Position numbers and translations under genes: made by a program. The notes under the pieces were generated by a model, which worked only from the letters and a program-made list of their open reading frames with translations, did not search any database and was not told the DNA's origin. A DNA stretch of 64,000 nt from Minisyncoccota bacterium (lineage in GTDB: Bacteria; Patescibacteriota; Minisyncoccia; Phycocordibacterales; CAIJYI01). Location: NCBI GenBank assembly GCA_023229825.1, contig JALNYN010000002.1, positions 17,789-81,788 on the forward strand, written 5' to 3'. This document shows, piece after piece, positions 8,815 through 64,000 of the stretch. The stretch's first letter is position 1; every line of letters begins with the position of its first letter.

Positions 8815-9918
8815 TTATGTCGTGAGAGGCATCACCAAGTACATAAATGACTGATCCGATACCCCGCGTATCACCAGAGGCCTTCCCTCGCCTGAGAAAC
8901 GGAAAGTGATGCTGTCTTGCTTAAGTGATTGAAAACAATCGATAAGATATTTCTGATTAAAACCGCACGAGATATTTTTTCCAGACAAAGAAGCGTCTAC
9001 AACGGTCATATTCTCGCCGGCTGTGGAATTTTTTGATTCGGTGATAAATTTCTTTCCGGAAACATCGACGGAAACATCGACCCGATTGAATTTGTCGGAA
9101 AACAGATTGGTTACCTTGAGTGCGTTCATGATATCCTGCTTTAGAACAGTCGCTTCCGTCGCATAATCTTTAGGGATTATTTGCTGATAATCGGGAAAAA
9201 TACCGTCAACGATCCGAGAGGTCACGTAAATATCTTTATCGGCAAGAGAAAAAGATATCTGATTCTTGCTCACATTGATATTCACACTTCCGGTTACTCC
9301 ATCAAATACGCGAAGTATTTCCACGATATTTTTTTGAGGTATCAATACGTGTTTGAATGAGGTTTTTTCTTTAAGGAACACTTTCTTTTCCGCCAGACGG
9401 AAAGAATCGGTCGCGGCAAAAATGATATTTTCCCCCTCGGAATAGATGCAAACGCTCGCTATCTCCGGCTTCATATCGGAAATGGATGCGCTATACCAAA
9501 CGCTTTTCACGCCGTCCACAAACTTATCCACCGGCATAGCAAAGGCATCGGTACCGGAAACGACGGGAAGCGTCGGAAAATCCTCGTGCGGAAGGCATTT
9601 AAGCACGGATCGCCCATTGGAAGACTTTAATACCATATTCTCAGAAGATGTTTCGAGCGAAACTTTTTGGTCATAGATCGAGGATAGAACGCCGGAAAGA
9701 AGATTACCCTGAATGACCAGCGTACCCTCCTCGGAAACCTGTGCGGGAATCTCCATTTCAATACCGACATCCAGATTGGTGGCGCGAAGAAGAAGTTTAT
9801 TGTTTTTTGCCGAGAAGAGTATTCCCCCAAGTACCGGAAGAGACAGATTTTTTCCGACCATCCTTTCGGCTAGTCCGACCGCATTTTTAAGTACGTCTTT
9901 TGAGCATTCTAGTTTCAT
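8815..9918 (-). CDS. dnaN: DNA polymerase III beta subunit (sliding clamp)
   Basis: 367 aa, MKLECSKDVLKNAVGLAERMVGKNLSLPVLGGILF... is a typical DnaN N-terminus with a three-domain length; sits directly downstream of dnaA. Confidence 0.9.
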   Translation of the reverse strand: MKLECSKDVLKNAVGLAERMVGKNLSLPVLGGILFSAKNNKLLLRATNLDVGIEMEIPAQVSEEGTLVIQGNLLSGVLSSIYDQKVSLETSSENMVLKSSNGRSVLKCLPHEDFPTLPVVSGTDAFAMPVDKFVDGVKSVWYSASISDMKPEIASVCIYSEGENIIFAATDSFRLAEKKVFLKEKTSFKHVLIPQKNIVEILRVFDGVTGSVNINVSKNQISFSLADKDIYVTSRIVDGIFPDYQQIIPKDYATEATVLKQDIMNALKVTNLFSDKFNRVDVSVDVSGKKFITESKNSTAGENMTVVDASLSGKNISCGFNQKYLIDCFQSLKQDSITFRFSGEGRPLVIRGVSDQSFMYLVMPLTT

Positions 9919-10238: not shown

Positions 10239-11588
10239 TTACAATAGCGCCCGTATCTGTGACAGCTCCTCGACTAACACATCATCGTCTTTGATCGAGC
10301 TTTTTATTTTATCGCACGAATGTATTACGGTCGTATGGTCTCTTCCTCCGAATTTTTCTCCGATCGTCGGATAAGAAACAGTGAAGTCCTCGCGAAGAAG
10401 ATACATGGCTATCTGACGGGGTTTTACGATCTCTTTCCTCCTTGTTTTTTCATAGATCGCTGATTCGTCGATATGGTAGAATTCAGAAACGACCTTAATG
10501 ACATCCTTAATTGAAGCCGTCTTTTTGGGTATTATATTGTTTTTTATCAGAAGTTTGATCTCGGTTTGCTGGAGTTCCCTGTTTTTGAGCCTGGCTTGGC
10601 ATATAATGGAATTGATAATACCTTCCAGTTCCCGAATACTGCACTCGAGCGATTCGGCAATGAATTTTACGCTGTCATCGTTGAGAGAAAAGTTACTCGA
10701 TTGGATCTTTCTTCTGATGATCGCCATTCTTGATTCGTATTCGGGTGTCGTGATGTCCACGATCATTCCGGCGCCGAAACGCGATTTAAGGCGATCTTCC
10801 AGTCCATGGATGTGGTTCGGATGGCGATCGGATGAAAAGATGATCTGTTTATTGTTTTCGTAAAGAATATTAAAAAGATGGAAAAGTTCTTCTTGAGTCT
10901 TTTCTTTTCCTGAGAGGAACTGAATATCATCCATGATAAAAACATCGTATTTTCGATATTTTTCTTTAAAATCATGTACTCGGTTGTTCTGAACGGAGTT
11001 GATGTAGTCCATCGAAAATTTTTCCGATGTGATGTAGTAGATCTTTTTACCGGATTTTTCCTCTTTAAGCTTGTTTCCCACCGCCTGCGCGATATGTGTT
11101 TTTCCAAGTCCCACTCCCCCATGGATAAAAAGCGGGTTGTAGGTTTGACCGGGGTGCTTTACCACTGCTTGCGTGGCGGCATAGGCCAATTCATTGAATG
11201 ATCCGATGACGAGCGTGTCAAACGTATATCTTGGATTCAGATTATCTTCTTTATTTATATACAGGTCGCTCAAAGGAAGTTCTTGCACATAAGGCTGTCC
11301 GGTTCGCGAAGGAGATGAATCCTGGCTTTTTTCTTTCATGGTCGGCGTGACGATCACATATTCGACGCCTCGGACGCCTTCGGAAATATTCCGGAGCGTC
11401 TTTAATATAAACTTATCGTATTTTGAATACAGCCATTCTTTTACAAATTCGTTCGGCAAACCGACGTATACGATCCCATTTTCGTGTTTAATGATCCGAG
11501 TGTTTTTGAACCACGTACTGAAGTTTGCTCGCGAAACAGTGAGCTCTACCTCCGCTAAGACGCTATCCCAAAGTTGCTTATTATCCAT
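10239..11588 (-). CDS. dnaA: Chromosomal replication initiator protein DnaA
   Basis: 449 aa. Walker A GVGLGKTHIAQAVGN, Walker B/sensor FIMDDIQFLSGKEKTQEELFHLFN, C-terminal DNA-binding helix IGEKFGGRDHTTVIHSCDKI. Confidence 0.95.
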   Translation of the reverse strand: MDNKQLWDSVLAEVELTVSRANFSTWFKNTRIIKHENGIVYVGLPNEFVKEWLYSKYDKFILKTLRNISEGVRGVEYVIVTPTMKEKSQDSSPSRTGQPYVQELPLSDLYINKEDNLNPRYTFDTLVIGSFNELAYAATQAVVKHPGQTYNPLFIHGGVGLGKTHIAQAVGNKLKEEKSGKKIYYITSEKFSMDYINSVQNNRVHDFKEKYRKYDVFIMDDIQFLSGKEKTQEELFHLFNILYENNKQIIFSSDRHPNHIHGLEDRLKSRFGAGMIVDITTPEYESRMAIIRRKIQSSNFSLNDDSVKFIAESLECSIRELEGIINSIICQARLKNRELQQTEIKLLIKNNIIPKKTASIKDVIKVVSEFYHIDESAIYEKTRRKEIVKPRQIAMYLLREDFTVSYPTIGEKFGGRDHTTVIHSCDKIKSSIKDDDVLVEELSQIRALL

Positions 11589-56768: not shown

Positions 56769-58589
56769 TTATTTCACTCCGTGTTTTTTTCGTATTTCCT
56801 TCAATTCTTCTTCTTCCACCTCGGCTTTCTTCTCTTTCCCTTCTTCCCCTAGTTTTTTAAGCTCTTCTTCCGGGAGTTTAATGAGTTCCAGCGTGCGTTT
56901 TTCAAGATATTCTTCGGTATTTACCTTCGGATCTTCTAAAACCTCCTCGAGTAAGGCGTGAAGGATCAAGCCGAGTTTTGGTCCGGGTGTTTCATGTGTA
57001 ACCTCCATTATCCTCGTTCCGTCAATTTTAAGCATCCCCACAGACACCGGCGAGCGCATCGCCTCCTCGATCATAGCCTCATATTTACGCAAACGATAGG
57101 GTTTTTCAACCGGTCGTCCCATTCCCGTACGGTCGCAGGCGCGAATCTTCATAAGATCCCACACATTTTCAGCGCCGACATTAGCCACGATCCTTCTGAC
57201 TGCTGAAAGCGTTATTTTCTCGATATCTGAGAAAAACATGTGATATTTCACGAGAGCCGAAACCGTCTGGGTTAGTTTCACGGGAAACTTTAATCGTTCC
57301 ATTATCTTCTTTGAAACTCTGCCTCCGACAACGTCATGCCCATAAAACGTCCATTTATCCTTCTCTTGTGACCATCTGCGCGTCTCAGGTTTGGAAATGT
57401 CGTGCAATAAAGCCGCAAGCCGAATGTGGAGCGGCCATCCGTGTTTCACCGCAGTATCAAGTGCGCGCAGATTGTGCTCCCAGATCGTATAAATATGCAT
57501 GCCTTTCTGCTCAAGACCGATCCCTTTTTCCAGTTCCGGAACGATAAATCGAAGCAAATTAAGCTCATGAGCCAAGATAATACCGCTCATGGCGTTATCC
57601 GACATAAGTATTTTTATGAATTCATCACGAATTCTTTCACATGAAACACTTTTCAAACTATCCGAAAGCCGAATAATGGCCTCTTTTGTCTCCTTTTCGA
57701 TCATAAAACCAAGCTGTGCCGAGAAACGAACCGCGCGCAAAAGGCGGAGGGCATCCTCACCAAAACGTTCCTTCGGCTTCCCTACTGTTCTGATTATTTT
57801 GCTATCAATGTCATTTTGTCCTTTATAAAGGTCAACGAGCGTTCCGTCGAACGGATTATAAGCCAAAGCGTTTATGGTAAAATCTCGCCGTTTCAGGTCA
57901 TCCTCAAGTTTTTTACTAAAGATCACATGATCCGGGTGCCGGCTGTCGCTATAGTCAGATTCAGTGCGGTAAGGCGTAACCTCCACGATGACGGTTTCGT
58001 CTGAAACATAGTTGCCTGTTTCATGTGCAACATTAAGTTCCTCTTTTTCCACTTGTACTGAGTTATGCCGAAGGGTTTCATCCTCCTCCGCTGAAGCTAT
58101 GGAGGACATGTGTGTAACTTCCCCACCCGTCATTCCGGACAGGGATCCGGAATCCACGTCGTTTGTTGCCTTCCTTGAGCCATGCCGAAGGGTTTCATAT
58201 GTAACGTTATTTTCCTCTTTTCCTTCAGTTTCACGTGACACTATTTGATTGATCGCTCGCGTGGCTCGCTGGGGCGTAGGGGCCAGTCTGAGGACTGGCG
58301 TATGAAGGTCCGAGGTTTCGACACTTTCCCCTGTTTCATGTGTAACATCATCTTCTGTTTTTATCACTACGCCAACGGTTCCGTAGTCATTTTCATAAAA
58401 TGTCTTCTCAAATAACCCGATTATTTCTTCCGGTACGGCATTCGTGGTAACATCCCAATCTTTAGGGATTCTTCCCAAAATCAGATCTCGCACGCACCCT
58501 CCAACCAAATACGCCTCAAAACCGGCACCCCGCAAGGTCTCGGTTACACGTGTAACATATGACGGAATTTTCGATTTTAAGTCGTTCAT
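56769..58589 (-). CDS. cca: CCA-adding enzyme/poly(A) polymerase-family tRNA nucleotidyltransferase with HD domain, carrying a ~115-aa in-frame insertion built from repeat elements
   Basis: N-terminal LVGGCVRDLILGRIPKDWDVTT (NTase glycine motif); after the insert RRDFTINALAYN and HD-domain LAALLHDISKPETR. Insert translated from 58010-58350 contains repeat-derived peptides PTPQRATRAINQIV (family-B element 58247-58282), DVDSGSLSGMTGG (family-C hairpin 58128-58161) and repeated VTHETG/ETLRH units. Confidence 0.85.
   Translation of the reverse strand: MNDLKSKIPSYVTRVTETLRGAGFEAYLVGGCVRDLILGRIPKDWDVTTNAVPEEIIGLFEKTFYENDYGTVGVVIKTEDDVTHETGESVETSDLHTPVLRLAPTPQRATRAINQIVSRETEGKEENNVTYETLRHGSRKATNDVDSGSLSGMTGGEVTHMSSIASAEEDETLRHNSVQVEKEELNVAHETGNYVSDETVIVEVTPYRTESDYSDSRHPDHVIFSKKLEDDLKRRDFTINALAYNPFDGTLVDLYKGQNDIDSKIIRTVGKPKERFGEDALRLLRAVRFSAQLGFMIEKETKEAIIRLSDSLKSVSCERIRDEFIKILMSDNAMSGIILAHELNLLRFIVPELEKGIGLEQKGMHIYTIWEHNLRALDTAVKHGWPLHIRLAALLHDISKPETRRWSQEKDKWTFYGHDVVGGRVSKKIMERLKFPVKLTQTVSALVKYHMFFSDIEKITLSAVRRIVANVGAENVWDLMKIRACDRTGMGRPVEKPYRLRKYEAMIEEAMRSPVSVGMLKIDGTRIMEVTHETPGPKLGLILHALLEEVLEDPKVNTEEYLEKRTLELIKLPEEELKKLGEEGKEKKAEVEEEELKEIRKKHGVK
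58010..58350. repeat. Composite repeat insertion inside cca: short GTTACACATGAAAC-type units, a ~112-bp internal tandem duplication (gccgaagggtttcat... at 58066 and 58178), one family-C hairpin and one family-B element
   Basis: Seen directly; stays in-frame across the whole insertion. Confidence 0.8.
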
Positions 58590-58672
58590 ATTTTTGTGTT
58601 CTCATTATACATTATTTTTGTTCACTTTTCCACATTGATTCTCTTGAACCAAGGAAGTATAATAAATGTAAC

Positions 58673-59347
58673 ATGAAATCCAAGGTTTCAGAAAAAATGA
58701 AAGTAATTGAGCTAAGAAAACAAGGGCTCAGTTATAAAGAAATACTAGAAATAGTTCCGGTTGCAAAAAGTTCGCTATCAGGATGGTTAACAAATCTTGA
58801 CCTAACGGATGAACAAATTTCTGCATTAAAAAAGAGGGCAGTGGATGGACGCACTCTTGGGGTATTTAATGCTGTTATTTCAAACAGAAACAGACGAATC
58901 GCTCGAGAAGCATCAATTTTTAAAATTGCAAAAATAGAATTTGAAAAGTTTAAAGATGATCCGTTTTTTGTTTTGGGGGTAAGTCTTTACTGGGCGGAAG
59001 GAACTAAAAAATTTTCTGAGTTTCAGTTTATTAATTCAGATCCGCAAATGATTAAAATTATGGTTCGTTGGATAAAAGAATATATGGGTTTCAGCAAAGA
59101 GTCTTTAAAAATAAGGTTATTTATACATCAACCATACGCAGACGAAAAATGTGAGGAATTTTGGTCTGATATTTTAGGAATTCCATCAAATACATTTTAT
59201 AAAACCATATATAAACAAACGCCGCATAATGTTAAAAAGAACCCTAAATACAAAGGTTGTTTAAGAATTGGTATCGGTAAAATCGAAAATCTGAGAAAAG
59301 TGCTTGCATGGCAACGATTATTATGTGATTATTATTCTGTAAGCTAA
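58673..59347 (+). CDS. HTH-domain protein, paralog of 60087..60770; possible degenerate LAGLIDADG-type endonuclease
   Basis: N-terminal resolvase-type HTH VIELRKQGLSYKEILEIVPVAKSSLSGWL; central FFVLGVSLYWAEGTKK (compare LFIAGIMLYWGEGDKV in the paralog). Start at ATG 58673; the track ORF starts at 58559. Confidence 0.4.
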   Translation: MKSKVSEKMKVIELRKQGLSYKEILEIVPVAKSSLSGWLTNLDLTDEQISALKKRAVDGRTLGVFNAVISNRNRRIAREASIFKIAKIEFEKFKDDPFFVLGVSLYWAEGTKKFSEFQFINSDPQMIKIMVRWIKEYMGFSKESLKIRLFIHQPYADEKCEEFWSDILGIPSNTFYKTIYKQTPHNVKKNPKYKGCLRIGIGKIENLRKVLAWQRLLCDYYSVS

Positions 59348-59356
59348 ATGAATTAC

Positions 59357-59428
59357 GTCCTCGTAGTGAAACGGATATCACGCAACGCTTCGAACGTTGT
59401 ATTCCAGGTTCGAGTCCTGGCGAGGGCA
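59357..59428 (+). tRNA. tRNA-Arg (anticodon UCG)
   Basis: Manual fold: acceptor gtcctcg/cgagggc (one G-U), D-stem gtga/tcac, anticodon stem caacg/cgttg with loop cTTCGaa, T-arm ccagg-ttcgagt-cctgg, discriminator A; no encoded CCA. Confidence 0.7.
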
Positions 59429-59580
59429 CAGTAGCGAAGCGGATGTGGCCTCGAGCAAGTGACCTGCGTCACTTGCGCCCAGGACTCGAAAGGGTTTTCG
59501 TTATTTGTGAGGATCGTAATCCGAACAAATCGGAAACCACCCGCGACGGTAGTCGAGAGTCCTGGCGAGGGCACTATTTG

Positions 59581-59634
59581 GTTGATCGCTCGCGCGGCTC
59601 GCTGGGGCGTAGGGAGTCGGCTGTGGGCCGACAG
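59581..59634 (+). repeat. Family-B GC-rich element (gttgatcgctcgcgcggctcgctggggcgtagg + hairpin gtcggctgtgggccgac)
   Basis: Conserved 34-nt 5' part shared with 58247-58300 and 63362-63414, each followed by a different short hairpin. A duplicate of the tRNA-Arg 3' end (tcgagagtcctggcgagggcac, 59555-59576) lies just upstream. Confidence 0.8.
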
Positions 59635-59670
59635 GTGAAAACCAATGGTTTTCATACTTTCCTTTCGTGA

Positions 59671-59994
59671 ATGAAAAAAAATAATATGGCTAAAACACTC
59701 AAAGAACTACAAGAAATAATGGTTATTCAATTGAAACGCCGTGGATTTTATCCGAAAGATGATAAAGAAGTTTTGTTACGATTAGGAGAAGAGGTTGGAG
59801 AAGTTATGGAGGCGGTTCGAGAAAATCAAAGTAAGGAGGATTTGAGTCATGAAATGGTGGATGTTTTTTGGAACCTTCTTCGTTTGGCGGAATTGAAAGA
59901 TATAGATTTGGAAAAAGCGTTTATTGAAAAATGGGAAATAAACGAAAAACGTCCGATAAACAAAGTCGTTATGGATATTTCTGAGAATAGTTAA
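59671..59994 (+). CDS. MazG-like nucleotide pyrophosphohydrolase domain protein
   Basis: LRLGEEVGEVMEAVRENQSKEDLSHEMVDVFWNLLRLAE matches the MazG/NTP-PPase helical core. Confidence 0.6.
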   Translation: MKKNNMAKTLKELQEIMVIQLKRRGFYPKDDKEVLLRLGEEVGEVMEAVRENQSKEDLSHEMVDVFWNLLRLAELKDIDLEKAFIEKWEINEKRPINKVVMDISENS

Positions 59995-60086
59995 TTTTAA
60001 AAAATTATGGATAAGTATTATATCCACAATTTTTTATAGTAAAAACCGAAACCCCGTGATATACTAATACTATAACAAATAAAAAA

Positions 60087-60770
60087 ATGAGAAAAGATAA
60101 AGAAAAAGCGATACAATTAAGGCACGAAGGGAAGAGCTATCGAGAAATTAAGAAAGAATTGAGTGTTCCTTTGAGTACACTTTCAGAATGGCTCGCTCCA
60201 TACGATTGGTCGAAAAATATTGCGCATTCATTAGCGGAGATCGCAAAAGAAAAAAATACCATTCGCCTCCGTTCTTTAAATGGAATTCGGAATGAACACT
60301 TAAGACACGCTTATGAGGATGCACGCAGTGAGGCGGTGGAAGAATTTCAGGTTTTAAAATATCACCCATTATTTATAGCTGGAATTATGTTGTATTGGGG
60401 AGAAGGAGATAAAGTAACCAAAGGTCACGTTAAACTAACCAATACCGACACGGCAATGGTAAAAATTTATGTTAATTTTCTTTTAAGTGTTTGCCGAGTA
60501 GAAAAAGAAAAAATACGATGTTCTTTGTTGCTCTATCCGGATCTTGATGACGAAGTGTGTAAAAACAACTGGAGAAAAAATGCCGGACTCGAAAACATTC
60601 ATTTTGGCAAAAGTACGGTAATACAGGGAAGACATAAAACAAAGAGATTACAAACGGGAATTTGTATAGTAAGCGTTTCAAGTAGTTATTTTAAGGAAAA
60701 AATATTAATTTGGACAAAAATGCTTGCCGAAGAACTTATATCTCCAGATTATTATAATTTTAGGTTGTAA
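60087..60770 (+). CDS. HTH-domain protein, paralog of 58673..59347
   Basis: AIQLRHEGKSYREIKKELSVPLSTLSEWL; LFIAGIMLYWGEGDK. Confidence 0.4.
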   Translation: MRKDKEKAIQLRHEGKSYREIKKELSVPLSTLSEWLAPYDWSKNIAHSLAEIAKEKNTIRLRSLNGIRNEHLRHAYEDARSEAVEEFQVLKYHPLFIAGIMLYWGEGDKVTKGHVKLTNTDTAMVKIYVNFLLSVCRVEKEKIRCSLLLYPDLDDEVCKNNWRKNAGLENIHFGKSTVIQGRHKTKRLQTGICIVSVSSSYFKEKILIWTKMLAEELISPDYYNFRL

Positions 60771-60829
60771 TAATTTTATTTTTAAGTATACTTAGATTTA
60801 TACAAAATACAAAATTGCAAATACTTGAC

Positions 60830-60900
60830 GCGGGTATAGTTTAGTGGTAGAATATGACATTGCCAATGTTAAGGCGCGGTTTCGATTACCGCTACCCGCA
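60830..60900 (+). tRNA. tRNA-Gly (anticodon GCC)
   Basis: Manual fold: acceptor gcgggta/tacccgc, anticodon stem tgaca/tgtta with loop tTGCCaa, T-arm gcggt-ttcgatt-accgc, discriminator A. Terminator 60908-60934 follows. Confidence 0.75.
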
Positions 60901-60983
60901 CAGTGAGAAAAAACCGCTATATAGCGGTTTTTTTGTTACGCGGGAAACTTTATTTCAGAGATCGTTTCGTGTATACTATAACT

Positions 60984-61295
60984 ATGGAAATTAAACCTGA
61001 ATTTGAATCCGCCCTTATATTGCATAACGTTCGCGAATTTGTCATGGATAAGAGAAAGTTTGACGAATGCATACCGGAAAACCTGAAAGAGGGAAGAGAG
61101 TATGGTTTTTTGGTGTCGGGACAGCGAAACTATTGGATCCTTGGAAAATTTCCGTTACACGAGAAACTGGAGGACGGAACCACATCAGAAGACCCACGCG
61201 CCATCATCAATATTTTTGAGGTAACTCACTTTATCGATAACGGACAGATATGCACGAAGGGGAAATATAAGATACTGCAGGTTGTTGGACAATAG
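60984..61295 (+). CDS. Hypothetical protein
   Basis: ~103 aa from the internal ATG (MEIKPEF...); the track ORF start overlaps the tRNA-Gly terminator. Confidence 0.4.
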   Translation: MEIKPEFESALILHNVREFVMDKRKFDECIPENLKEGREYGFLVSGQRNYWILGKFPLHEKLEDGTTSEDPRAIINIFEVTHFIDNGQICTKGKYKILQVVGQ

Positions 61296-61384
61296 GATTT
61301 ACGGATTTACGGATTTACGGATTTACGGATTTACGGATTTACGGATTTACGGATTTACAGATTTAAGGATTTACGATTTAAGAA
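61295..61384 (+). repeat. Tandem array of the 8-mer GGATTTAC (8 perfect plus ~3 degenerate units)
   Basis: ggatttac x8 then agatttaaggatttacgatttaag; the same unit forms the inverted arrays at 12634-12718. Confidence 0.9.
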
Positions 61385-61690
61385 TGTGGATGGACACTCT
61401 GTCCGGCGATAGAACTGATTTTGTAGCTGATTCCGTTCGTTTTCCCTTATACTTATACTAATCCCTTATACTTTTGTGTGGATAACTCAGGGGATATGTG
61501 TATAAAAGACATTGAAATTTGTCCTTCGCAAGCATTCATCTTTTGACCGATTGTCAATAAATGTGGCTAAAAATAACAATATTTGTTTCGGTCGTCAAGG
61601 AAAAAGTCCTTCATTATGAAGGAAATAAATCGACGTTTCACATGAAACGTCGATTTTGTTAATTTTTCTCAAAAGGAGTATTCTTTTGAT

Positions 61691-62206
61691 ATGAAGAAAG
61701 TGAAAAAGAAGACTGAAAAACGAAAAATAGGGGATATGGGGGAGAAGATCGCCGGACGTTTTTTGCAATCCAAGGGGTTTGAAATTGTTAGTTGGAATTA
61801 CTTAAAACCATGGGGAGAAATTGATATTATCGTTCGGAAAAAACGGAAGATACATTTTATTGAAGTAAAGACAGTATCCGTTACCGGCTTTGTTTTTTTG
61901 CAAGAAACACCGAATTTTTTACACAAATGTAAAACTTTTGTGGCAGACAAAATATCTCGTCCGGAAATGGCTTATAGTATTCGAGAAGTTTCAGGTGAAA
62001 CATTATCTCTCGAAATTGACGGTTATCGTCCGGAAGATAATTTGCACCCATGGAAACTTAAACGGTTAAAACGAGCCATTCAGTCATATTTAGCCGAAAA
62101 AAGGATCTCGGAAGAAGATGACTGGCAATTTGATGCAGTGACGGTAAGGATCGACGAGGAAGGAAAGACCGCCCTCGTCGAATATCTGGAGGATATTATT
62201 CTATAG
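61691..62206 (+). CDS. yraN: YraN/UPF0102-family endonuclease-like protein with C-terminal extension
   Basis: GDMGEKIAGRFLQSKGFEIVSWNYLKPWGEIDIIVRKKRKIHFIEVKT matches the family core. Confidence 0.65.
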   Translation: MKKVKKKTEKRKIGDMGEKIAGRFLQSKGFEIVSWNYLKPWGEIDIIVRKKRKIHFIEVKTVSVTGFVFLQETPNFLHKCKTFVADKISRPEMAYSIREVSGETLSLEIDGYRPEDNLHPWKLKRLKRAIQSYLAEKRISEEDDWQFDAVTVRIDEEGKTALVEYLEDIIL

Positions 62207-62247
62207 ATCTCCCAACGTTGGAAAAAGAGGGATCTTAAGATCGTGTA

Positions 62248-62673
62248 TTACCGATTGAGGTAGGTAATCGTTAATTGGAGCACGGTCGCGAAGGAAACCC
62301 AGAGGAAATAGGGAGCCTGAAGATAAGCGACCCATTTCACGTGAGGATATATGGCGATGATCGCCCAGATGAGCGTGCCGAGGACGAGGAGGATGTCAAG
62401 GGATGCGAGAAGGTTATTTTTTAGACCGAACTGAATGGGGGAGAAAGCAAGATTGAAAACAAGATTCAAAATAAAAGGAATAGCGATGGCGAACGGTAAT
62501 TCTTTGTTCCAAGCCATGATGAACACTTTCCCGAATGAAATTATGATCAGGGCATAAAGAAAGGTCCAAGCCGGCCCAAAAACCCACGAGGGCGGCGCCC
62601 ATGAAGGTTTTATTAATTGAGAATACCATGTAATTGTCTTATCCATAGCTTTACTATAACATAGTAGCTTCAT
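62248..62673 (-). CDS. tspO: TspO/MBR-family tryptophan-rich membrane protein
   Basis: 141 aa, 5 TM, Trp-rich (WYSQLIKPSWAPPSWVFGPAWTFLY). Confidence 0.75.
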   Translation of the reverse strand: MKLLCYSKAMDKTITWYSQLIKPSWAPPSWVFGPAWTFLYALIIISFGKVFIMAWNKELPFAIAIPFILNLVFNLAFSPIQFGLKNNLLASLDILLVLGTLIWAIIAIYPHVKWVAYLQAPYFLWVSFATVLQLTITYLNR

Positions 62674-62724
62674 ACTGTGAATTTTCTCTTTACTTTTTAC
62701 ACATTAGTGCTATACTGTAAGTGT

Positions 62725-62845
62725 ACGGCGGGGACGCGAACAGAAGAGGGGATGTCACAGGACGAAGGGTCTCCCGCCACGAAAGCAACCTGAAAAGGGT
62801 TTCTAGCGCGGTTCCTGAACTTGCGTCCGCCGTACACAAAAGAGC
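62725..62845 (+). ncRNA. Candidate structured small RNA (~120-nt extended hairpin), identity unresolved
   Basis: GC-rich island in an AT-rich region. Terminal pairing gtgtacggcgg/ccgccgtacac and ggacgc/gcgtcc with internal loops; no ORF; followed by a T-run (gggtgttttttt). Could not be matched by eye to SRP, 6S, tmRNA or RNase P consensus. Confidence 0.3.
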
Positions 62846-62914
62846 ATCCCTTAGGGTGTTTTTTTGTTCCTTTTATGGTAGGATTAAGCGAAAGTCGAAA
62901 AAAGTTAAAAGTAC

Positions 62915-63360
62915 CGGTAGTATCCTGCTTCGCCAGAGGCTACGCAGGACGCGGCGTCTGCTTTGGGGTCGAATGTATAATTGTTTCTTTAAGCTCTTCT
63001 ATAAAATAATAACTACAGTGTCGGGGCGTAGTATACCGGTAGTACGTCTGCTTTGGGGTTCGTTTTTATTGTCGGGGTGTAGTATACCGGTAGTACGTCT
63101 GCTTTGGGAGCAGATAGACCGAGTTCGATTCTCGGCACCCCGACAATAAAAAAGAACCGGAAACATCCTAAATGTTTCCGCGGCCCGAAGGGAGATAGAC
63201 CGAGTTCGATTCTCGGCGCCCCGACACTGTAGTTATTTTTAGATCAGAGGAGCTTAAAGAAACAATTATATATTTGACCGGAAGTGTCTAAACACTTCCG
63301 TGGCCCGAAGGGAGATAGACCGAGTTCTCCGCCAGCTGGCGGATCGGGGCCCCGACAATC
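62915..63360 (+). repeat. Cluster of tRNA-Pro-derived fragments and short hairpins surrounding the intact tRNA-Pro
   Basis: 5'-half copy 63020-63058 (gtcggggcgtagtataccggtagtacgtctgctttgggg). 3'-part copies 63186-63226 and 63303-63356 (…gggagatagaccgagttc…ccccgaca), each preceded by a ccggaa…ttccgg hairpin. Further fragment 62917-62970. ctacagtg/cactgtag at 63013 and 63228. Confidence 0.8.
63073..63143 (+). tRNA. tRNA-Pro (anticodon UGG)
   Basis: Manual fold: acceptor cggggtg/caccccg, D-stem gtat/gtac, anticodon stem tctgc/gcaga with loop tTTGGGa, T-arm ccgag-ttcgatt-ctcgg, discriminator A. Confidence 0.7.
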
Positions 63361-63361
63361 T

Positions 63362-63414
63362 GATTGATTGCGAGCGCGGCTCGCTGGGGCGTAGGAGTCA
63401 GTCTGCTGACTGAC
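63362..63414 (+). repeat. Family-B GC-rich element (gattgattgcgagcgcggctcgctggggcgtagg + hairpin gtcagtctgctgactgac)
   Basis: Third copy of the conserved 5' part, with its own hairpin. Confidence 0.8.
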
Positions 63415-63535
63415 GGGAAAAACCTGCGGGTTTTTCGAAAAAAACGTGAAATAAAAATATATGAGTAACGAAACAAGTAAAAATCATCTTTTGTAAGAAA
63501 TTACGATCTTGTTCGTCTTTACAGGTGTACAACCC

Positions 63536-64000
63536 ATGCAAGAAAAGGAAAATCAGTTTTTGGTAAGTTATGATGCGCATGCGGACGCGCTCTTTCGGTT
63601 TGCCTATTTTCAGGTGTCGGACAGGGAAGCGGCGAACGATATTGTGCAGGATGTTTTTATGGAGACATGGAAATACCTTTCAGAAGGAGGAGAAATAGAG
63701 AATTTTCGGGCTTTTCTGTATCGCGTTGCACGAAATCGAATCATCGATCATTATCGAAAACATAGATCTCAGTCGCTTGATGCCATTCAAGAAAGCGGAA
63801 TGGATTTTTCAGACGAGCGAAGCAGAGAAGTATCGGAAGCCCGGTCGGAAGCGATGCATATACTCCGACTCCTTGATCGCGTCGATAAAAAATATCGGGA
63901 ACCGGTATTACTCAGGTATATGGAAGGAATGGGGGTGAAAGAGATCGCACAAATTTTGGATGAGTCCGAAAGTAACACGTCGGTTTTGATCCATCGCGGG
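63536..64000 (+). CDS. RNA polymerase sigma-70 factor, ECF subfamily (3'-partial, runs off window end)
   Basis: Region 2 DIVQDVFMETWKY...FLYRVARNRIIDHYRK and region 4 PVLLRYMEGMGVKEIAQIL; ATG at 63536; no stop before 64000. Confidence 0.8.
   Translation, partial: MQEKENQFLVSYDAHADALFRFAYFQVSDREAANDIVQDVFMETWKYLSEGGEIENFRAFLYRVARNRIIDHYRKHRSQSLDAIQESGMDFSDERSREVSEARSEAMHILRLLDRVDKKYREPVLLRYMEGMGVKEIAQILDESESNTSVLIHRG

Follow-up and report, generated by a model that had tools for sequence, protein, structure and literature searches.

At positions 62894-63355 of a 64-kb window from a metagenome-assembled Minisyncoccota genome (contig JALNYN010000002.1; by 'the window' we mean the whole 64,000-nt stretch that was analysed), the gene for tRNA-Pro(UGG) is present in three nested layers: an intact gene lies between the two clean halves of a second copy, and these lie in turn between the decayed pieces of an outermost pair. 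The array is strictly nested and not tandem, because the leader and trailer of each layer are inverted relative to one another and each 3' copy is headed by a hairpin and the sequence CCCGAAGGG. We interpret the locus as the product of serial, nested insertion of a horizontally spreading, palindromic cassette that bears a tRNA gene and is tolerated only in the cognate tRNA gene, and we would place the probability of this interpretation at roughly 55%. The broader proposition, that Patescibacteria harbour an undescribed selfish mini-element, an inverted-repeat cassette whose sole cargo is a complete tRNA that replaces the cognate gene it disrupts, is put forward more tentatively, as somewhat more apt to fail than to hold.

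The innermost gene (63073-63143, or to 63144; this and all other features of the array are on the forward strand) is the one intact tRNA-Pro that ARAGORN reports at the locus, and it matches Rfam RF00005 over its full length at 61.9 bits. It has C1-G72 and A73, does not encode CCA, carries the acceptor pair U6:A67 and is presumably functional. Its 14-nt leader is the reverse complement of its own trailer (63052-63079/63136-63163; inverted repeat I2, 28 nt, 89%), and the two arms, TTCGTTTTTATTGT at 63059-63072 and CAATAAAAAAGAACC at 63144-63158, form the short stalk of a cassette that we call E0, a helix of 17+2 bp in the minimum free energy fold. The trailer runs into a hairpin, hairpin 1 (CGGAAACAT-CCTAA-ATGTTTCCG, then CGG; 63158-63183), and then into the first copy of CCCGAAGGG (63184-63192), which pairs with the anticodon loop CTTTGGG of the surrounding relic. 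That relic, layer 1, consists of a 5' half (63022-63058), intact over linear nucleotides 1-36 through the anticodon TGG and G37, and a 3' half (63193-63224) comprising linear nucleotides 40-71 (direct repeat D3; BLAST query positions 40-72). Each half departs from the inner gene at a single base: repeat D1 (63019-63057 against 63070-63108) is identical at 38/39 positions, the sole difference being T6 to C, and repeat D3 (63193-63226 against 63112-63145) at 33/34, the sole difference being A67 to G. These variants are mutually complementary, both halves being of a C6:G67 allele where the inner gene is U6:A67.

Layer 1 is itself enclosed by a second cassette, E1. Approximately 55 nt before its 5' half are the reverse complement of the stretch that follows its 3' half (62967-63028/63217-63279), and form a long stalk with a leader arm at 62969-63021, pairing with 63225-63278, and a trailer arm at 63225-63278 (inverted repeats I1, 34 nt, 91%, and I3, 24 nt, 96%); within the leader there is an extended -10-like motif, TGTATAAT (62976-62983). 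The trailer is again followed by a hairpin 1 (CGGAAGTGT-CTAA-ACACTTCCG, then GTGG; 63279-63303) and by the second copy of CCCGAAGGG (63304-63312), which pairs with the anticodon loop of layer 2. The 5' relic of this outermost and presumably oldest layer (62894-62968; direct repeats D5 and D7) has an acceptor 5' strand decayed to gtcgaaaaaag, a D arm recognisable from direct repeats (62912-62922), a hairpin insertion directly after it (62923-62949) and the 5' strand of the anticodon arm with the loop CGTCTGCTTTGGGG (62955-62968); an insertion at the matching site, after GTAGTA and likewise beginning TCC, is found in the relatives L044 and L068 (loci and contigs other than the window are denoted by L and a number). 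The 3' relic (63313-63355; repeats D2 and D4) retains the acceptor 3' strand GGCCCCGA, and its T loop is replaced by the 16-nt palindrome TCCGCCAGCTGGCGGA (63328-63343). Decay therefore increases outwards, from the intact inner gene through the almost unaltered layer 1 to layer 2, whose acceptor 5' strand is gone and which has acquired two hairpin insertions.

An earlier sequence-only reading of this DNA had placed the intact gene, the 5' half and the 3' copies within a few bases of where ARAGORN, Rfam and the direct repeats put them, and had seen both the complementarity of the acceptor variants and the hairpins in the T loop and D-arm region of the older fragments. Its proposal that one tRNA gene had been split by an insertion carrying a second full copy is upheld by the matched C6:G67 halves, by the existence of that allele as an intact gene in the relatives L027 and L063, and by an in-silico join of the layer 1 halves, which ARAGORN still calls as tRNA-Pro(tgg) with 3 nt of the anticodon stem missing. 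The inverted flanks of each layer, the covarying hairpin and CCCGAAGGG ahead of each 3' copy, and the strict nesting that results had escaped that reading.

The cassettes share a common design, consisting of an inverted-repeat leader/trailer stalk, a complete tRNA-Pro, a GGAA..TTCC hairpin with GYGG, and CCCGAAGGG. E0 measures about 135 nt (63059-63192) and E1, which now encloses it, about 340 nt (62969-63312). Cassettes start with GT(T/C)(G/C)(A/G)(A/T) and finish with ..(G/T/C)AAC or ..TGAC, and terminal inverted repeats are present (GTTCGT../..AAGAAC, GTCGAA../..TTTGAC, and GTTGAA../..TTTAAC or TTTCAAC). The point of insertion is the same in both layers: layer 1 keeps linear nucleotides 1-36 and 40-71, with the intervening 135 nt (63058-63192) replacing AGC at standard positions 38-40, and the junctions of layer 2 match these, so that the loss from the anticodon arm is the same 3 nt for both cassettes. 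The junction between CCCGAAGGG and AGATAGACC is identical in the two layers, and the 21-nt junction sequence CCCGAAGGGAGATAGACCGAG occurs twice where 0.00 copies are expected. Hairpin 1 differs between E0 and E1 at three or, by another count, four stem pairs, each changed on both strands with pairing kept. CCCGAAGGG is a mini-hairpin with a GAA loop, and its CCCGAAG complements the old anticodon loop CTTTGGG, the outer anticodon arm becoming a 12-bp helix with two G.G mismatches (GUCU/AGAU, CUUU/AAGG, GGGU/GCCC). The single-strand fold of 62900-63365 is a cloverleaf inside a cloverleaf inside a cloverleaf, with a free energy of -225.7 kcal/mol against -140.6 +/- 6.2 for shuffled sequences (z = -13.7). 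Given this value and the double occurrence of the 21-nt junction, a chance origin of the array is excluded. We rejected the idea that pairing between leader and trailer is usual for tRNA genes of these bacteria: among 258 distinct tRNAs of the Patescibacteria loci, only about 7 have an acceptor extension of at least 9 bp, and these are mostly tRNA-Pro loci that are nested or show traces of nesting (the window, L025, L072, L055).

Transcription of the array would begin at an extended -10, promoter-like motif, TGGTAGGAT (62876-62884), about 10 nt 5' of the start of the layer 2 relic. In relatives with a plain tRNA-Pro (L073, L022 and L026 among them), TGGTAGGAT or TGGTAGAAT stands about 9 nt upstream of the tRNA, and from this matching distance we infer that the array uses the ancestral promoter, which would probably drive all of its layers; a consensus promoter scan raised no flag at 62876-62884. 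At the other end, a palindromic element of a family that we call B (about 63360-63413) ends the array, as had been claimed from the sequence alone, and together with a terminator-like hairpin and its T run (63360-63440 in all; hairpins GCGAGC-GCG-GCTCGC and GTCAG..CTGAC) it appears to close the transcription unit.

The comparison across related genomes used 8-kb slices in addition to the window. A 23-nt tRNA-Pro word, applied to one genome per species, yielded 103 Patescibacteria loci, and the 288 tRNAs within the loci fetched were scanned blind for nesting; taxonomic labels are unreliable for some of these metagenome-assembled genome (MAG) records. In 24 of the 103 loci a UPF0102 gene precedes tRNA-Pro, in synteny with the window. 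The distribution of the cassette among relatives is patchy. The loci closest by UPF0102 identity, L027 (65%), L063 (58%) and L011 (52%), have a plain tRNA-Pro with neither halves nor stalk, and the cassette is present in L025; the nested loci of L044 and L068 have a cassette of the same family. L025, which is syntenic but distant (42% identity in UPF0102 and 54% in a helix-turn-helix (HTH) protein), has a single layer, composed of a 5' half, a 14-bp stalk, an intact tRNA-Pro, hairpin 1 with GTGG, a second small hairpin and a 3' part. Its hairpin 1 and GTGG are identical to the E1 copy at 26/26 positions, its 3' part begins at the same nucleotide as that of the window, and its fold has z = -8.1. 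L044 (Ryanbacteria) and L068 share with the window the left junction, between CTTTGGGG and TTGAA, the right-hand module and the right breakpoint, and the cargo of their cassette is tRNA-Pro(CGG).

Nesting recurs in other tRNA genes as well, and the architecture in other Patescibacteria spans tRNA-Pro(UGG), tRNA-Pro(CGG), tRNA-Ile and tRNA-Phe. In L080 a tRNA-Ile is cut cleanly between nucleotides 35 and 36, the insert is bounded by inverted repeats of 16-18 nt, and the halves join in silico to a perfect tRNA-Ile; in L056 the T arm of tRNA-Ile is interrupted by an insertion, and L098 has a nested tRNA-Phe. Five tRNA-Pro loci of a Doudnabacteria type (L036, L061, L071, L091, L050) always have the inner allele CGGGGAG, around which the split outer allele is either CGGGCTG (L036, L061) or CGGGGTGTCG (L071, L091, L050), each of these being the sole intact copy in other genomes. 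The outer gene of L036 lacks the anticodon and that of L071 the whole anticodon arm, and the halves of neither can be joined into a tRNA. In the window, the allele of the split layer 1, C6:G67, is the only one present intact in L027 and L063, the closest relatives in synteny, and is also that of the intact tRNA-Pro of L025; the inner gene has exactly the tRNA-Pro allele of L011, L044 and L068, which are more distant. Horizontal spread is favoured by three aspects of these data: a distant relative has the cassette where the nearest ones lack it; a non-coding hairpin is identical at 26/26 positions where proteins are 42% identical, while its E0 copy shows it able to vary freely with compensation; and in Doudnabacteria-type loci the inner allele is constant and the outer alleles differ. 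Two further searches added no loci. The sequences L226-L239, found through homologues of UPF0102 and TspO, have no tRNA-Pro beside TspO, although L226 ends just short of the relevant region, and a metagenome scan with the pattern TTCCGYGGN{0,30}AGATAGAC, which proved too loose, returned 120 chance matches and none that was real.

In proposing how such a locus arises, we infer a direction and order of events, a direction of transfer, an enzyme, a route of movement and a processing pathway from the anatomy described above. There would have been two successive insertions, each into the anticodon arm of the tRNA-Pro gene then resident and each swapping out 3 nt (standard positions 38-40), such that the old gene was left as halves flanking the cassette. 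Transcription would start at the ancestral promoter, ahead of the outermost relic, and RNase P and the 3'-end processing enzymes would free the innermost tRNA only. The stalk and the loop-complement CCCGAAG would clamp each layer in register and keep the halves from mispairing with the working tRNA, a role that would explain why stalks occur essentially only at nested loci. Older layers would afterwards decay and gather palindromic hairpins. The cassette would spread horizontally and persist only in a cognate tRNA gene, because only there is the function that it destroys the function that it supplies; if these genomes have one gene per tRNA, as is probable, an insertion would therefore survive only where it brings the same tRNA, and no special recognition of the target would be needed. 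Its own tRNA would then offer a fresh target, with re-invasion producing genes nested like Russian dolls, and the host would be unable to lose the cassette once the resident gene had been killed and replaced.

The movement itself could be effected by a structure-specific recombinase or transposase acting in trans, or the cassette could be copied from a nested donor by recombination within the 32-36-nt tRNA halves. The latter would carry the junction along, which would explain why the same 3 nt are replaced at both junctions in the window. The GGAA..TTCC hairpins and the GCGAAGC/GAA mini-hairpins hint at a single-stranded DNA intermediate. It had been suggested from the sequence alone that palindromic elements target the stems of the tRNA; palindromes are indeed involved, but it is loops that are hit and not stems, and the key unit is an inverted-repeat cassette with a whole replacement tRNA.

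Several observations weigh against serial insertion of a mobile cassette. No integrase or transposase Pfam domain was detected in the 29 window open reading frames (ORFs) scanned, and searches of phage and viral sequences with the region, hairpin 1, the tRNA 5' 23-mer and the 3' part found nothing. The 64-kb window has no further copy of the junction or of hairpin 1 outside the tRNA-Pro locus. There is no clear target-site duplication at the cassette junctions: those of the window cassettes have only GGG in common and those of L080 share nothing. The ends of the cassettes are short and loosely conserved, and apart from them the stalks of E0, E1 and L025 show no sequence relationship; stalks could have been built or maintained after insertion, by selection or hairpin-templated correction, and so need not be the ends of a transposon. 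The change from C6:G67 to U6:A67 could have arisen in place through a G.U intermediate. The near-identity of the outer 3' halves to the inner gene (97-100%; 33/33 in L025 and 32/32 in L068) requires gene conversion, recency or selection. Finally, arms of 32-36 nt offer barely enough homology for RecA-type recombination.

Of the alternatives, the one that survives best, though we think it unlikely, is that elements with a tyrosine integrase inserted serially at the anticodon-loop sublocation of tRNA-Pro, each supplying a new 3' half, and later lost integrase and cargo by deletion, leaving arms proximal to the attachment (att) sites as relics resembling cis-mobilizable elements. Fragments of tRNA genes left by integration are well documented (PMC9897764, and Williams 2002 as cited there), and the 3' copies at this locus run from the anticodon arm to the 3' end, as do att repeats of the anticodon-loop type. 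The 3' direct repeat expected of an integrative element is present (63112-63145 against 63193-63226, 33/34, with a third copy at 63313-63355). A related class of insertion, in which only a 3' fragment is displaced, is common (by our count 36/288 tRNAs, of T-loop type, including tRNA-Arg in the window with an empty site in L229), and in L044 and L068 a module of hairpin, GCGG and GAA mini-hairpin precedes a displaced 3' fragment of tRNA-Ala. However, what integrase-mediated recombination duplicates is limited to the segment common to attP and attB, and it yields neither a displaced 5' half nor a complete inner gene with complementary leader and trailer, whereas here a 5' half (63019-63057) and a 5' relic (62912-62968) lie upstream of the intact gene. 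For the same reason the classical serial integrations considered in the sequence-only reading, which would give 3' repeats only and no upstream 5' halves, do not account for the array. The inserts, at 135-340 nt and with an architecture conserved in many genomes, are unlike the products of random deletion, and the junction lacks inverted-repeat core sequences flanking a shared overlap. The earlier remark that no integrase is present holds both for the 29 ORFs scanned against Pfam and for the 4 kb on either side of the array (gene list of contig L225).

The 3'-only class merits description in its own right. It consists of a tRNA, 100-200 nt of insert and a 3' repeat of 15-20 nt, with a hairpin and a T-arm copy in inverted orientation inside the insert, and it affects tRNAs for Gly, Arg, Pro, Phe, Lys and Ala. 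The example in the window is tRNA-Arg(UCG) (59357-59429), followed by an insert of 145 nt (59430-59574) whose last 18 nt copy the 3' end of the tRNA and which holds a GCGAAGC mini-hairpin motif, a hairpin with a CTGC loop and the inverted T-arm copy CCCAGGACTCGAA; in L229 (1794-1960) the same site is uninterrupted. Because the 3'-only class in L044 and L068 uses the hairpin, GCGG and GAA mini-hairpin module of the nested cassettes, the two classes are probably products of one system.

Slightly less probable again is a functional composite RNA, in which the outer tRNAs would be expressed with a pre-tRNA as their 'intron', excised by RNase P and RNase Z before the halves are ligated again, or a tRNA-like scaffold with its stalk would serve the single tRNA-Pro as a processing, stability or regulatory device. 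The break falls after position 37, the canonical intron position, and sequence bordering the break is base-paired to the anticodon loop, a trait shared with the pre-tRNAs of archaea and eukaryotes. The joined halves of L080 and of window layer 1 give a perfect tRNA-Ile and a callable tRNA-Pro respectively, the outer 3' halves stay identical to the inner gene, and the pairing of the stalk and of hairpin 1 survives complete turnover of sequence. Yet the junction helix has two 1x1 G.G mismatches in place of a bulge-helix-bulge (BHB), three anticodon-stem nucleotides are missing from layer 1, the anticodon from L036 and the anticodon arm from L071, and the older layers decay, with the acceptor strand of layer 2 gone and hairpin insertions in the window, L050 and L061. 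The structure is one that the nearest relatives manage without, and it matches no Rfam family, group I intron or ribozyme. Two specific candidates were rejected outright: an archaeal-type intron, since no BHB motif (3-nt bulge, 4-bp helix, 3-nt bulge) occurs at the junctions, and a group I intron, ribozyme or known RNA family, since a search of 58500-64000 against Rfam, at the gathering threshold or at E <= 10, returned only tRNA.

Local duplication, by replication slippage, unequal crossing-over or misaligned gene conversion and without foreign DNA, appears improbable. The array does contain repeats of 34-40 nt with 90-97% identity at spacings of 51, 81 and 120 nt, and if a locus with one nested layer were converted out of register against its own inner tRNA, a second layer with the same junctions would result, as is seen here. 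Such processes would nevertheless be expected to yield tandem, direct units with identical spacers, whereas the spacers here are reverse complements of one another, and the layers differ in the sequence and length of the stalk (14 against about 55 nt), in the stem of the hairpin and in the tRNA allele; the origin of the first layer, and the presence of the cassette in L025 but not in closer relatives, would be left unexplained. Replication slippage, which had been offered as one possible cause of the array, finds no support on these grounds, the flanks being inverted and not direct. We also considered whether the leader and trailer of the inner gene were copied from the flanks of the outer gene, by break-induced copying from a sister chromosome, and rejected this as the sequences are unrelated.

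An assembly artefact, in which strain variants of tRNA-Pro were threaded into one path and which had been named as what would overturn the earlier reading, is scarcely credible: the window does derive from a MAG, and Logan unitig L001, identical as far as 63048, breaks within the repeat, as unitigs do, but an independent MEGAHIT contig from ENA (L225, 46 kb) crosses the array with 100% identity over 867 bp, every layer has unique and mutually complementary flanks that no graph error would create, and the same architecture is found in more than 10 other MAGs from unrelated studies.

The bacterial character of the window is plain from dnaA, dnaN, a sigma-70 factor and a bacterial CCA-adding enzyme in or next to it. 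Within 4 kb on either side of the array the gene list of L225 has TspO, UPF0102, a sigma-70 factor and DUF5667. Since dnaN (8815-9918) and dnaA (10239-11588) are adjacent, both on the minus strand, the window is probably close to the replication origin. Short palindromes are a recurring feature. The 22-nt core of family B, GCGCGGCTCGCTGGGGCGTAGG, has three copies in the window (58259-58280, 59592-59613 and 63374-63395) against 0 expected; two directly follow tRNA 3' ends, and in L229 an element directly follows tRNA-Arg. The third lies inside the ORF for the CCA-adding enzyme (56769-58589) and is read through in frame as the peptide PTPQRATRAINQIV, a location within a gene that resembles the palindromic elements of Rickettsia. 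In this enzyme more than 100 residues are inserted after the N-terminal region and ahead of the remainder of the polymerase head domain, the best Pfam match to which begins at residue 177; the insert is rich in V[TS]xET-like repeats and the family-B copy lies within it, suggesting that the ORF has been enlarged by repeat elements. The 16-mer TCCGCCAGCTGGCGGA of the layer 2 T loop also stands directly after the tRNA-Pro of L070, and small GC-rich palindromes, including hairpins with a GAA triloop, occupy the loops of relic tRNA pieces in the window, L050, L061, L085 and L100, the last two having a tandem tRNA-Pro pseudogene with a GC-rich hairpin in its T loop.

Other features near the locus are of separate interest. 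A candidate small RNA (62721-62837) has a perfect terminal stem of 11 bp, a promoter-like site (62689-62716) and a terminator (62836-62867); it is conserved in L226 (8420-8498), has no Rfam match and folds with z = -3.4. Two paralogous proteins (58559-59347 and 60087-60770; 29% identity) combine an N-terminal HTH of transposase type with an uncharacterised alpha/beta C-terminal domain bearing the motif LYWxEG[DT]K, and all relatives keep them next to tRNA-Arg and tRNA-Gly. Homologues number 507, and all those named to an organism come from Parcubacteria-type or unclassified bacterial MAGs and are annotated as 'hypothetical'; an AF2 model has a pLDDT of 86.6, and Foldseek gave no significant match in the PDB. 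Directly after the ORF at 60903-61295, an 8-nt unit, GGATTTAC, is repeated in about nine tandem copies (61295-61375).

Transfer RNA genes are classic landing sites for mobile DNA, and the known outcome is a kilobase-scale island with a short 3' repeat. The outcome at this locus differs, in that a unit of 135 nt breaks the gene within the anticodon arm and brings in a complete new copy, stacked three deep. Were the cassettes mobile, they would constitute a minimal, 'addictive' element and a vehicle for the horizontal replacement of tRNA alleles between lineages of Patescibacteria, as well as a testable bacterial model for the long-debated insertion origin of split and intron-containing tRNA genes. 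The annotation and assembly of these genomes would be affected, tRNA finders reporting or missing the fragments and contigs breaking at nested loci, as would the use of tRNA genes as markers of integration. Should the reading as a selfish mini-element be true, it would amount to a bacterial, DNA-level route to 'split' tRNA genes. On a conservative reading, the locus documents relic tRNA halves that were neutralised by compensating helices and then decayed.

The structural features of the array have partial analogues in other systems. Fragments of tRNA genes produced by integrative elements, with their attL/attR repeats and the anticodon-loop and T-loop sublocations of Williams 2002 (reviewed in PMC9897764), are similar in that a tRNA gene is targeted, an intact gene is restored and the displaced 3' segment is kept as a direct repeat. 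Serial events of this kind leave several 3' copies, and 3'-only elements such as that at tRNA-Arg (59430-59574) fit the pattern. In the nested array, by contrast, a complete tRNA with leader and trailer lies inside the old gene and the 5' half is displaced too, and the inserts are of 135-340 nt, lack an integrase, have inverted-repeat flanks and are nested, not tandem.

Disrupted tRNA genes of Archaea include those with BHB introns at 37/38 and the split tRNAs of Nanoarchaeum equitans (PMC3293823; PMC4033280), and in Caldiarchaeum a 5' fragment of tRNA-Thr is parted from its gene by a mobile element (PMC3293823). As in the window, halves are separated at a canonical position with complementary sequences after the 5' half and before the 3' half, and mobile-element insertion has been proposed there as the cause of disruption. 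However, our locus is from a bacterium (a C1-G72/A73 tRNA-Pro, sigma-70, DnaA) and has no BHB; its halves are not evidently rejoined, the intervening sequence is a working tRNA of the same kind, and there are up to three layers.

Bacterial miniature inverted-repeat and REP/RPE-type palindromic elements (PMC3184786) are likewise short, non-coding, bounded by inverted repeats and without an adjacent transposase, and the GC-rich hairpins in relic tRNA loops, and even in an ORF (the family-B copy in the gene for the CCA-adding enzyme), are reminiscent of them. The cassettes differ from these in carrying an essential gene, in being confined to the cognate tRNA gene and not dispersed, in having no clear target-site duplication and in having inverted repeats that vary between copies. 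There is also a resemblance to a class of insertion in another structural RNA. The intervening sequences of bacterial 23S and 16S rRNA are excised by RNase III, and the host RNA functions in pieces. In both cases an extended helix takes the place of a hairpin loop in a structural RNA and is presumably excised without the flanks being rejoined, but in the array the host tRNA is dead and it is the insert that carries the functional molecule.

We found no description of nested bacterial tRNA genes in the literature that we searched, which is not in itself proof of novelty. None of these systems combines a complete replacement tRNA as cargo, inverted-repeat flanks, insertion into the cognate loop and recursive nesting. 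The array belongs to a known kind, that of insertions targeted to tRNA genes with partial duplication of the gene, and the nested form with a tRNA as cargo would be its new aspect.

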